Below are positions 48,151 to 54,589 of a stretch of 64,000 bases of DNA, in pieces (positions within the stretch are counted from its first letter, which is position 1; the number at the start of each line of letters is the position of its first letter). Both the position numbers and the translations under genes were made by a program. Below the pieces are notes generated by a model that had not been told where the DNA came from, searched no databases, and worked only from the letters and a program-made list of their open reading frames with translations. Source of the stretch: Schmidtea nova (taxonomy: Eukaryota); NCBI GenBank assembly GCA_044892505.1, contig CM097882.1:326802001-326866000 (forward strand), written 5' to 3'.

Positions 48151-49131
48151 TTTCGTAATATAACATAACAATTCCTAACTCATGTCTTGAAATCTAAAAT
48201 AGGAAATACTACTAATTAAAAAATCGACTCGTACTCACCTTCACCTTCACACTCTCAACAACGTTCATCTCATAAGAAAAATGCAAGAAAAATGGATGCT
48301 AATAATGAAAAGAAAATGGTTCGAAATAATGCTCAAGTCTAGAATAATGCTCATGAAGTGAAATGAATTGTGAAACAAGTATTGATTTAATCTGAATTAA
48401 AACTCATTACGGTCTAAATAAGTTTTCCTGTGAATCTTGTTTTTCGAGAGCCTGAAATTCCTAAGTGAGGTGTACCGAAAAATTCGCGTACACTTTGATT
48501 GGGAAATTCATGCTCAACAAAACCGAAATTTACTTCACTTGATGTTAAAAATATTCGTCGAAAAAGGTATAACTTATTTTATTTTTATTTTTATTTTATT
48601 TAGTATATCAAACTCTTTAGATTAAATGCATATTTAGATCTCGAAATTCATGGGTAAAATATTTTTATCAAGAATAAAAATTTGCTTTTTATTATAAAGA
48701 TTTTAAATGAAAAAATTGTAAACCAAAAAATGTTCCTAATATTATTAATATATAAAAGATCATATCATTTCATAAAAATCCAGAGAATTACAAATCAAAA
48801 GTTATATTACAGATCGAAATTTTATTATTATATTAATAAATTTTATTATTTTACAAAAAATCTGAATTTGAAATTTTATAGGAAAAATTTTATGATTAAT
48901 ATATATATTCAAAAAAGATAAAAATTTAACTTCAAAAATACATATTAAAAAACTTATAAATTTCATCATTAGTTAATTTTCGAAAAATTGTAAATTAAAA
49001 AAGTTAAATCAAACTCGGTTTTAAAAGACTGAACTTCCTTCATAGATTTATTTAATTAAAATTTTATAAAAAGTGCCAAAATACTCAATTATTAAAACAC
49101 CAGTTAATTTAAATATCCAACTCTCCCCTTC

Positions 49132-52100
49132 TTAAGAACTTTTCCACTTCTTCAGCCACTCGATTCTTCTTTCTTTCGTTCCTTCTTGCGAATGTAGTTC
49201 GACTCGATGAGGTGATAGAAATCTGATGATTTTATATGGGCCATCGTACTGCATACCATCCTTGTGTCTGTTCTGCGGTTCTTTGCGTACGAGTACCTCC
49301 TCCCCCACCTCAAAAACACGAGTTCCTCTCTTTGTCTTATCCATTGCTCTCATAGTGTCTGCGGCTTTACTCGAGTTATATCTTGCGTCTTCTATCCATT
49401 CGCTTCTTGATATCTCTGCTTGTTTCAGGTTTGAATGTAGGTTAACACTCCGTCCATAAATTATCTCAAATGGTGATAAGCCTGTAGCACTCTGTCGACT
49501 GCTATTTATACTGAACTCTATTCTAGGTAGAAGTTCATGCCAGTTTCTCTCTTCACACCCACCTGCCAATATCGCTGTAATAAGATCTCTTACTGTTCGT
49601 ATGGCTCGTTCGGCTAATCCATTTGATTGGTGCTGGTAAGGTGAGCTGAATTCCTGTTTGATTCCAAGTTTCTGTAGTCTCTGTCTTAGAAAATTCCCTT
49701 CGAAATTGCGTCCTCTATCTGTTAAAATGCTCTTTGGTTTTCCAAATCGATAGATCCAACTGTTAAGTATAGTTTTGAAAATTGTCCCTTCGTCTTGCTT
49801 CGTGATTGCGGTCAAAGAAATCAATTTACTAAACCGGTCCACAATTACTAACATATATTTTTTAATGGTGTTTTTTTCCATGTAGGCCACATCCATTACA
49901 ATCTGTTCTAGGAATTCAGAACTACATCTAGGGATAAATATTTCCTTGGTTCTTGTCTGGTCGATCTTTCTCTTAGAGCAGATATCGCAACATTGTAAAC
50001 AGAGCTGAATTGTTTCTTGCATCTTCGGCCAGTAAAATATCTTTTCCATATAATGTAATAATTTCTTAACTCCAATATGACATAATTCTTCATGTAGAGT
50101 TGTTGTTAATAAGCCTGCAAAGGTTTCTGGAACTAACATTAAAATATTTTCGTTCTTTTCGACTGTTATTAATCCTCCATCAATTCTTGTATTTTTTACG
50201 TTAAATGGGAAACAATTCTTTTTGTCCCGTGCGCATCCATTTTCTAATATCTCTCGTAACTCTCGAAACCTAATGTCCTTCTGCTGTTGCTCCAATACTT
50301 TTTCCATAGCTTCTGTTCTTTGGATAGTATATATATATCGGATTTTTGACTTTCCTTCCTTGGCATCTTCATGTCGTGTTTGACACTGGGAACAAATCAT
50401 ACTTTTTAATCTTGATAGCCCATCTGCATTCGAATGTTGTTCACCTTTCCGATATTTTAGTTCAAAATCATATTCAGACAAGTTTGCTAACCATGTTTGA
50501 AACTGCGGACTGATTGGTGTTTTTGTAGTGTTCATGAAAACCAATGCTTTGTGGTCGGTGCGAATTATGAATTTCTTTCCGTAAAGATATTCTCTAAAAT
50601 GTATGACGTACTCATGTACAGCGAGCAGTTCTTTCCTGGTTACACAGTAACCCTTTTCATGTGATGTCATATGTCTCGAACCATATGCTATAACAGATTC
50701 TTCTCCATCTTCTTTAATTTGGCTCAAAACTGCACCAATTGCTCCAAAGCTAGCGTCTGTGTCTAAGATAAATGTCCTATCTTCTCTTGGATAATCAAGG
50801 ATAGGTGCCTCGCACAACCGTTCCTTTAGTGTTTGGAAACTCTCATTGCATTCTTTAGTCCAAATTATATCTTTATCGCATCCAGATGTTGCGGCATATA
50901 GTGGTTCTGCGATTCTGGCGTAGTCTTTAATAAATCTTCGATAATAGTTCGTTAATCCGAGAAACGATCTTAATTGCTTTGAACATTTTGGTATTTCTGC
51001 TTTCTCGATCTCTTCAACTTTCTTTCTGTTTGTCTGGATACCCTTCTCGTTAACTGTGTGCCCAAGGAAACACAATTCTGTTTTATTGAATTCACATTTT
51101 TCTGGATTTATCTTCAATCCTGCCATTTGAATTCTTCTAAATATTTCCCCTAGTAGCTCATCGTGGTCTTTTTGACTTTTCCCATAAATCAAAATATCAT
51201 CTAAATAAACAACTACCCCTTTGAATAGCATTCCTTCTAGTACTTTGTGCATCAGTCTCTGGAATGTCGCAGGAGCTGTTGTTAGGCCAAACGGTAGTCT
51301 GTTAAAGCAAAATTGTCCTTCTCTTGTACTGAATGCAGTCATTTCTTGAATTTCTGGGGCCAACTCTACTTGATAGTACGCCTGGCCTAAATCAATTGAC
51401 GAAAATATTTTTGCATTCGCTAGACAGTCTAATAAGAATTTGGTATTAGGCATCGGAAATGATTCCTTTTCTGTTATGGCATTCAATCCACGATAGTCTA
51501 CACACATCCTGATGGATCCATCTTTCTTCCCTACTATAACTAACGGGGCATTCCAAGGACTCTTGCAACACCGAATAACATTTGCTTTTATTAATTCTTT
51601 TATCAGTTCTTCAATCCTTTTCTCCATGTGCATTGGTTGACGTCGAGGATGTTGCATTATTGGGCCTCCTGTTATCCGCATCTCATGTCGAACTAAATTT
51701 GTAAATCCCAAATCAAATTTCGACGCCATAAATATTCCGCCGTATTTCCTGATCATTCCTTCAATGTCTTTATTATTCTCACTTGCCATCGCCATCAGTG
51801 CTTTATTTATTCTTTCTTCATCAGTGTGGATTTTGTTTATGTATGAAGTTTCTATATTATTGATCTTCACTAACTTTACTCCAAACTCTTTCATTGTATC
51901 AATACCCCCTATGAATTCTGGCTTGATCTCTTTTACAACCACTACTGTGATAATTTTGGTCTTCTGATTCCATGTGGCTGATATATTCATATATCCCATT
52001 GCCTCTTCACCTCCAGTTGAAAATACGCCGCATAATAATATAGTACTACGTTGAAGGTCTGGTTTGCCTATTCTCTCCCACAGATTCTTGCTCATGACTG

Positions 52101-53552: not shown

Positions 53553-54589
53553 AGATTTATTTAATTAAAATTTTATAAAAAGTGCCAAAATACTCAATTA
53601 TTAAAACACCAGTTAATTTAAATATCCAACTAAAAAAAAATCCATAAAAAGTATTGAAAAAATTATTATTATTATTTTAATTTAAAATTATTATTATTAT
53701 TTTGGTTTAAAAATTATTACTATTAGTTTAATTTAGAAATTTTTTATTATTTTAACTTTAAAAAATATTTTGTATAATTTATTTAATTTATAATATAACC
53801 ACCCCCACGATATCTTAAAAAATAATGATGCATCCCTAATTGCAGAAAATTACATCCATTTCACTCAATAGCATCACCCATATTAATATACAAGCAACAT
53901 ACATATAAAATACAATACACACACATGCACGGTATCATTCAATAACATTTAACAATCATATACACGCAGGCAAACCATACCAAAGAATTCCACACAGACA
54001 TGCTAGTCAGAATCGTACGTCCAAACACACTCACAAGCACTCAATTGTTTTTCAGTCACCCATCATAAAATCGCACGCAAACACGATAACAATACAATCA
54101 TCTAAATCTATAACAATATTACACACAATCATTCTAACTCATCTCACTCAACATACAATCGCAAAAACCTAACAATAGAATACCCATCTCAACACACGAA
54201 AATATATAAACTCACAAATCAATCAGCTCACCAACACAACATACCGCATCCAAAAGTGCATTATCAACATCATATACTCTCTACATGTGTCCAGGTAACA
54301 TCATAACCCCCTAGCTATCCAATTATCAAATTAGAATTTTATATTTGCAAACCGAATATAATTCACATCTTTCCGACTCGTATAAAAGATGTCGACTAGC
54401 TGTTCAGGTGAAGAATTTTGAAGGGCATACTGATTCTTGTACCACTACTTAATAATGGTTTTGGGCTACAAGCAGTAATTCACCAAGTTACAACCCCAAC
54501 ACGAGGGAAAAGGAAACCACCACTCTCTATGTGTATTTTGCATAATTTGAGAGACCGAAGGGAAAATTAGAAATTAACTTATCCCGAGG

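Follow-up and report, generated by a model that had tools for sequence, protein, structure and literature searches.

To our knowledge, the terminal CA is nearly universal in LTR elements. Ty3 of yeast, the type of the Metaviridae, has TG…CA ends with trimming. Ends of the form TG…CA also characterise Ty1, the yeast element of the Ty1/copia superfamily, in which the gag start lies inside the LTR and a +1 frameshift is used. Ty1 differs from the element described here in its superfamily, in its PR-IN-RT order and in its Met primer. It resembles the element in having the PBS within the gag frame (PMC4974528). The errantiviruses are the described exception, with AGT or AnT ends as a hallmark that extends to env-less derivatives; the passage of the review dealing with these ends calls it unclear which end bases the errantivirus integrase uses (PMC5408687). 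The Zam LTR carries the motif AGTTA…TAAYT (PMC3601003). Errantiviral Gag is described as being without a zinc knuckle and the primers as tRNA-Lys or tRNA-Ser in the Drosophila groups treated (PMC3383448), whereas env-carrying elements, broadly defined, include some with Arg primers (PMC13524379 supplement 1). The preferred errantivirus targets are given as TATA, CGCG or ATAT (PMC5408687). With respect to the reading of gag and pol, the microsporidian elements are described with one ORF (PMC4202319), and the CsRn1 clade of flatworms and insects resembles the present element as flatworm Gypsy, some members having a -1 frameshift (PMC2582038). Membership in CsRn1 was rejected, as the Trp primer, CHCC Gag motif and 4-bp TSD reported for that clade (PMC2582038) do not fit here. 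The giant Gypsy elements named Burro were also rejected, with a reported length of >30 kb (PMC11410931) compared with 4,630 bp here.

The element at 49002-53631 of the window, the 64,000-nucleotide stretch of Schmidtea nova DNA that was analysed, belongs to a genuine, young Ty3/Gypsy family whose clade has unusual ends (Table 1). Assignment to Ty3/Gypsy (Metaviridae) is based on the LTRs, PBS, polypurine tract, TSD, the order PR-RT-RH-IN and an RT closest to that of Ty3, the best solved relative (PDB 7q5b and 4ol8; E 5e-111), which has the same pol order and differs in its targeted insertion (PMC8632968). The PR, RT, RNase H and IN domains of pol all carry catalytic motifs, and 17 homologues of Gag were found. 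The pol frame gave no chromodomain match and no env match, and with the pol stop positioned 9 nt from the 3' LTR there is no space for env. The two LTRs are identical at 121 of 121 positions, and in the contigs of an independent run loose ends clustered at 53511 (n=28) and 53631 (n=42). The preliminary description of this DNA had reported intact gag and pol, matching and very short LTRs and the absence of env, all of which were borne out. The element is nested in a repeat that is dispersed and at least 2.3 kb long (window 47237-49001 and 53632-54155), copies of which (L108-L121) are often paired, 18-56 kb apart; this repeat probably represents a long LTR belonging to a giant retroelement. In another organism (organism C; X7, X11, X12) the internal part of the element was found at ~91% identity, with the LTR diverged.

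Table 1. Features of the 49002-53631 element and of two further Gypsy elements in the window.
Feature	Position	Strand	Remarks
Gypsy element	49002-53631	(-)	4,630 bp, env-less Ty3/Gypsy
5' LTR, AGT…ACT	53511..53631	(-)	121 bp; gag ATG at LTR position 80
PBS for tRNA-Arg(ACG)	53499..53511	(-)	overlaps the LTR by one base (first PBS base, last LTR base); in-frame reading T-G-D-H
gag, ATG 53552 to stop 52239	52239..53552	(-)	437 aa; two CX2CX4HX4C knuckles (aa 328, 347)
Slippery heptamer A AAA AAC, predicted -1 frameshift site	52287..52293	(-)	heptamer at the same place in 6/6 families
Predicted stimulatory hairpin	52249..52280	(-)	6 nt past the slippery site
Candidate second stem partner (pseudoknot) for the hairpin loop	52219..52226	(-)	weak; also protein-coding
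pol frame	49132..52320	(-)	open, 1062 aa; protease, RT, RNase H, integrase (HHCC, DDE, GPY motif)
Polypurine tract adjoining 3' LTR	49123..49133	(-)	same position in all 3' LTRs of LTR-search copies
3' LTR, same sequence as 5' LTR	49002..49122	(-)	121 bp, AGT…ACT
Presumed 5-bp TSD, left copy	48997..49001	(.)	A-run; right copy 53632-53636; length inferred from other copies
Gypsy A, other family of the AGT…ACT clade	11525..16027	(-)	pol broken into three frames
Gypsy C, decayed outgroup	31788..37053	(+)	TG…CA LTRs, TSD TAAAT

The local TSD site is ambiguous, with 5 A on the left and 9 A on the right. The flanking repeat has 14 empty paralogues with 6-11 A at the insertion site, which fits a 5-bp duplication and does not fix it. 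The duplication length was read from other copies in the host genome, which is AT-rich and comprises 1.25 Gb. An LTR search returned 1,468 candidates, of which 40 were scored, all 100% identical, and 30 were fetched; among these 30, a 5-bp TSD lay directly against AGT and ACT in 10/10 LTR pairs and in 2/3 solo LTRs, with 7 for which no partner was fetched. The word formed by ACT and the primer site had 2,252 matches in the genome and the control had 0. The first 40 of these matches gave 26 resolved relatives, 12 copies with no 3' LTR in reach and 2 with unclear starts. All 26 began with AGT at the 5' LTR and ended with ACT, with a TSD of exactly 5 bp (4 bp or 6 bp in 0/26). At the 5' LTR the ACT was preselected by the search pattern, so that the TSD serves as the independent check; the 3' LTR started with AGT in 24/26 and with AGC in 2/26. 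Ends reaching out to TG…CA were ruled out, the flanks diverging at once, the TSD abutting AGT and ACT and no copy of the AGT clade extending that far. The AGT…ACT termini claimed previously held for every resolved relative, and of the 'clean 5-bp TSD' also claimed the length was confirmed in these relatives and the cleanness was not, the local site being an A-run. The 26 copies displayed 20 different 5-bp TSDs, a variety which indicates that AGT ends alone do not bring strict target choice. The TSDs lean towards A/T and have a weak palindromic shape, and many insertions lie within (TA)n or (TAA)n microsatellites (L012/L013, L017/L018, L021, L030 and several of L031-L070). The junction of LTR and PBS specific to the 49002-53631 family occurs 430 times in the genome, where integrated 2-LTR junctions had 0 matches, and three near-full copies share 99.2-99.6% identity with that of the window. 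The near-full copies and the family junctions indicate recent amplification, and together with the identical LTRs they agree with the recent insertion proposed in the preliminary description.

At least six families have the AGT…ACT design, and their LTRs measure about 108-167 bp. One of these is Gypsy A, with AGT…ACT ends, an ATG in the LTR, the TSD ACAGT and LTRs (11525-11655 and 15897-16027) identical at 130/131 positions. Gypsy A and the 49002-53631 element have the same 17 primer-region bases, as had been pointed out before, and the suggestion of a lineage-level design made on that basis now extends to the further families and to the 2,252 junction matches.

The pol frame of the element is in -1 relative to gag. 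All six families compared share the arrangement of slippery heptamer, 6-nt spacer and hairpin. Pairing of the hairpin stem is 90% compared with 32-52% for slid controls, and 4 pairs show two-sided changes over the six families (5 of 500 shuffles), the families being related to one another. The folding energy of the hairpin of the window element alone was not significant (z -0.8). Pairing of the loop with a downstream segment amounts to 7-9 bp in the same register in 6/6 families, with single-family p values of 0.005-0.34. Sequence comparison predicts that pol is made through a -1 frameshift at A AAA AAC together with the hairpin, an arrangement that is ordinary retroelement biology.

Pairing between the PBS and host tRNA-Arg(ACG), CCA included, extends over 13 nt. 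With the tRNA-Arg(UCG) genes sampled, the match breaks off after 8 nt, and tRNA-Arg(UCG) was rejected as primer; the earlier assignment to an Arg-type PBS is accordingly retained and that to the UCG anticodon is not. The primer comparison covered ACG and UCG, no UCU genes being seen among the tRNA-Arg matches listed. The tRNA-Arg genes form very large tandem arrays (G000:C1 from about 282.82 Mb and about 272.78 Mb). The ACG-type array gave 319 pattern matches with a 257-bp unit, and a second tRNA-Arg pattern, of the UCG type among the matches listed, gave 2,158 with 264/330-bp units.

New in the present analysis is a sister clade in the same genome that uses the same primer, has TG…CA or TG…TA ends and forms its gag ATG from the terminal A of the LTR and the TG of the primer site. 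The clade accounted for 1,201 motif matches. Among 20 sister loci fetched, 3 were fully resolved, with TG…CA or TG…TA ends and a 5-bp TSD. The sister PBS was preceded by A at 10/10 sites, 9 of which give ATG, and a gag frame of 346-365 aa opens there in three copies; of 12 PBS sites compared, one belonging to an AGT family and one unrelated were excluded from this count. The sister-type junction A/TGG (the slash precedes the primer site) occurs 1,140 times in the genome. The sister clade (L094, L098, L101) shares with the AGT clade the tRNA-Arg(ACG) PBS without spacer, the 5-bp TSD and ~55% RT-RNase H identity, whereas it differs in its canonical ends, in LTRs of about 290-415 bp compared with 108-167 bp, and in its gag ATG, which arises where LTR and PBS meet and belongs to another frame. 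Some sister families (L087, L088, L101) end in TG…TA instead of TG…CA, a second relaxed end in the group.

An RT-RNase H tree was calculated from 43 rows picked from about 140, among which L079 and P0039 are long rows. The tree supported the AGT clade (99/96), the TG clade (99/96), the two joined (100/99) and Gypsy C as sister to both (100/98). The homologues without an organism name were divided by the tree between the AGT clade and the sister clade. The rows nearest the AGT clade, the basal pair P0038 and P0042, have a best match of 48% in this genome and no close family there. In Gypsy C the gag ATG also consists of the last A of the LTR and the TG of the PBS, and the primer site is different. 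The position of Gypsy C, with its TG…CA ends, makes TG…CA more likely ancestral, a polarity that rests on this one outgroup with known ends and a long branch.

The closest relatives in the same genome share the primer and have normal ends, so a one-base shift is the likely source of the odd ends here. The multi-family, env-less AGT…ACT clade with 5-bp TSDs probably descends from a TG…CA ancestor by loss of the last A of the LTR. Loss of this base would have changed AACA/TGG to AAC/TGG, so that the tRNA-derived T became the last base of the LTR, and the opposite end would have become AGT; the change of T to A at the left end is not accounted for by the same deletion. The lost A would be that of the sister-type junction ATG, so that the junction gag start would have vanished and the gag start moved to an ATG lying 7-14 codons upstream within the LTR, in another frame. 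The junction ATG of the sister clade and the LTR ATG of the AGT clade are both present in living families, and the order of events is the part we infer. We put at about even the chances of the fuller proposition, in which AGT…ACT ends originated a second time, independently, in animal Gypsy elements, beside a living TG…CA sister, through one lost junction base that also destroyed the junction start codon and pushed the gag start into the LTR.

In the replication scheme that would follow, the terminal A of tRNA-Arg(ACG) pairs with the last T of the LTR and DNA synthesis would begin one base inside the LTR. The one-base overlap of tRNA and LTR suggests that the template for the last T is a primer base that stays attached to the minus strand. 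The retention of one primer A on the minus strand is a known retroviral case, that of HIV-1. A cDNA made in this way would terminate in ACT and undergo blunt joining with no 3' trimming, which is the least sure step; one retained A with blunt joining would be the simplest version. The same origin of the ends could instead be combined with a cDNA carrying two extra bases per end (GG of primer origin, AG or AA of polypurine-tract origin), which integrase would remove as it does in Ty3 and retroviruses. The integrated sequence is identical under blunt joining and 2-nt trimming. In the AGT families, and likewise in 2/3 resolved sister copies, the LTR is preceded by a G-run and exactly two purines, as trimming would have it, whereas three primer bases would have to be kept on the minus strand compared with the one A of the retroviral case, and we consider trimming possible and rather unlikely. 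Location of the gag ATG in the LTR, as claimed for the window element in the preliminary description, was supported. An in-frame ATG was found within the LTR in 38/40 sampled copies, with 1/40 and 4/40 in the other frames; on the opposite side, an AT-rich box lies only ~17-45 nt upstream of it. That this ATG is unused, Gag starting at a later Met and the GDH word being a by-product of the primer site, is very unlikely: the 49002-53631 family does have a Met 20 codons beyond the PBS, and its LTR ATG is followed by an initiator-like word (position 91) that is absent from four other families, whereas the frame bias is strong, in three AGT families the next Met is 155, 80 and 51 codons beyond the PBS, and T-G-D-[H/L/P] is kept at residue 7-15 in 13/13 N-complete Gag homologues (of the 17, from unnamed contigs). 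A cluster look-up with one homologue returned generic gag/zinc-knuckle clusters only. DNA of the outside relatives was absent from viral contigs, with 2 distant loci in metagenome contigs, so that these relatives are known as proteins only.

Under an alternative reading, the element is an env-less errantivirus that inherited its ends, described earlier as errantivirus-like, from that group. The Drosophila errantiviruses (gypsy, ZAM, Idefix, 17.6 and env-less derivatives) have the same AGT…A(C/A)T ends, counted as a hallmark even where env is lost (PMC5408687, PMC3601003), and separate gag and pol frames, and the Zam motif resembles the ends of the present family (PMC3601003). In contrast, two CCHC knuckles are present here and in 17/17 Gag homologues, the primer is tRNA-Arg(ACG), not Lys or Ser (compare PMC3383448), and the varied 5-bp TSDs, with 0/26 at 4 bp, follow no strict target word such as TATA, CGCG or ATAT (PMC5408687). 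The GPY-type integrase tail, the LTRs of 108-167 bp, the gag ATG in the LTR and the absence of env are further differences, the last not exclusive as some errantivirus derivatives have lost env. The AGT clade is nested with TG…CA clades in the RT-RNase H tree. In a tree from which 10 further rows were dropped, an insect element with a Baculo_F env, which is not a canonical AGT-ended errantivirus, fell far outside the clade (p-AU 2e-36), and two errantivirus motif scans gave 7 loci, comprising 3 env-carrying insect-type loci without LTRs in view and 4 plant-badnavirus-like loci. No insect-named protein was among the best 120 of 7,973 scored in the RT-RNase H search. Errantivirus descent is thus most improbable, and of the earlier likeness the ends stand, with the knuckles, primer, TSD and tree pointing to convergence. 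The AGT ends are likely convergent with those of errantiviruses, as judged from sequences in a tree composed of elements other than the canonical errantiviruses (gypsy, ZAM, 17.6). The clade could alternatively be an ordinary Gypsy clade already catalogued and described, since planarian Gypsy families bear catalogue names such as Gypsy8 and GLT2 (PMC8532177), and Repbase, GyDB and the 2018 planarian genome paper may list such families. This is unlikely in view of the best 120 homologues of 7,973 scored, of which 106 are without an organism name (50-87% identity) and the 14 named reach only 36-45%, the nearest being a pseudoscorpion protein at 45%. In the open literature, a scope that Repbase and GyDB lie beyond, no description of the AGT…ACT design outside insects was found.

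The value of the element is that a matched canonical sister gives a concrete origin for both the ends and the LTR start codon. The sister clades have one primer, similar Pol and different ends, so that the question of the end bases used by integrase can be compared directly. If the proposed origin is true, the two clades provide a natural paired comparison of how the conserved CA end comes to be abandoned by an integrase, and they suggest the route taken by errantiviruses. LTR finders requiring TG…CA would miss or mis-trim this clade, with its >2,200 junctions in the genome.

Elsewhere in the window, fragments at 10171-11271 (-) resemble a Polinton-type DNA polymerase region. A long inverted repeat at 61950-63265, with 201 nt perfect and 122 nt at 91%, is possibly a non-autonomous DNA transposon.
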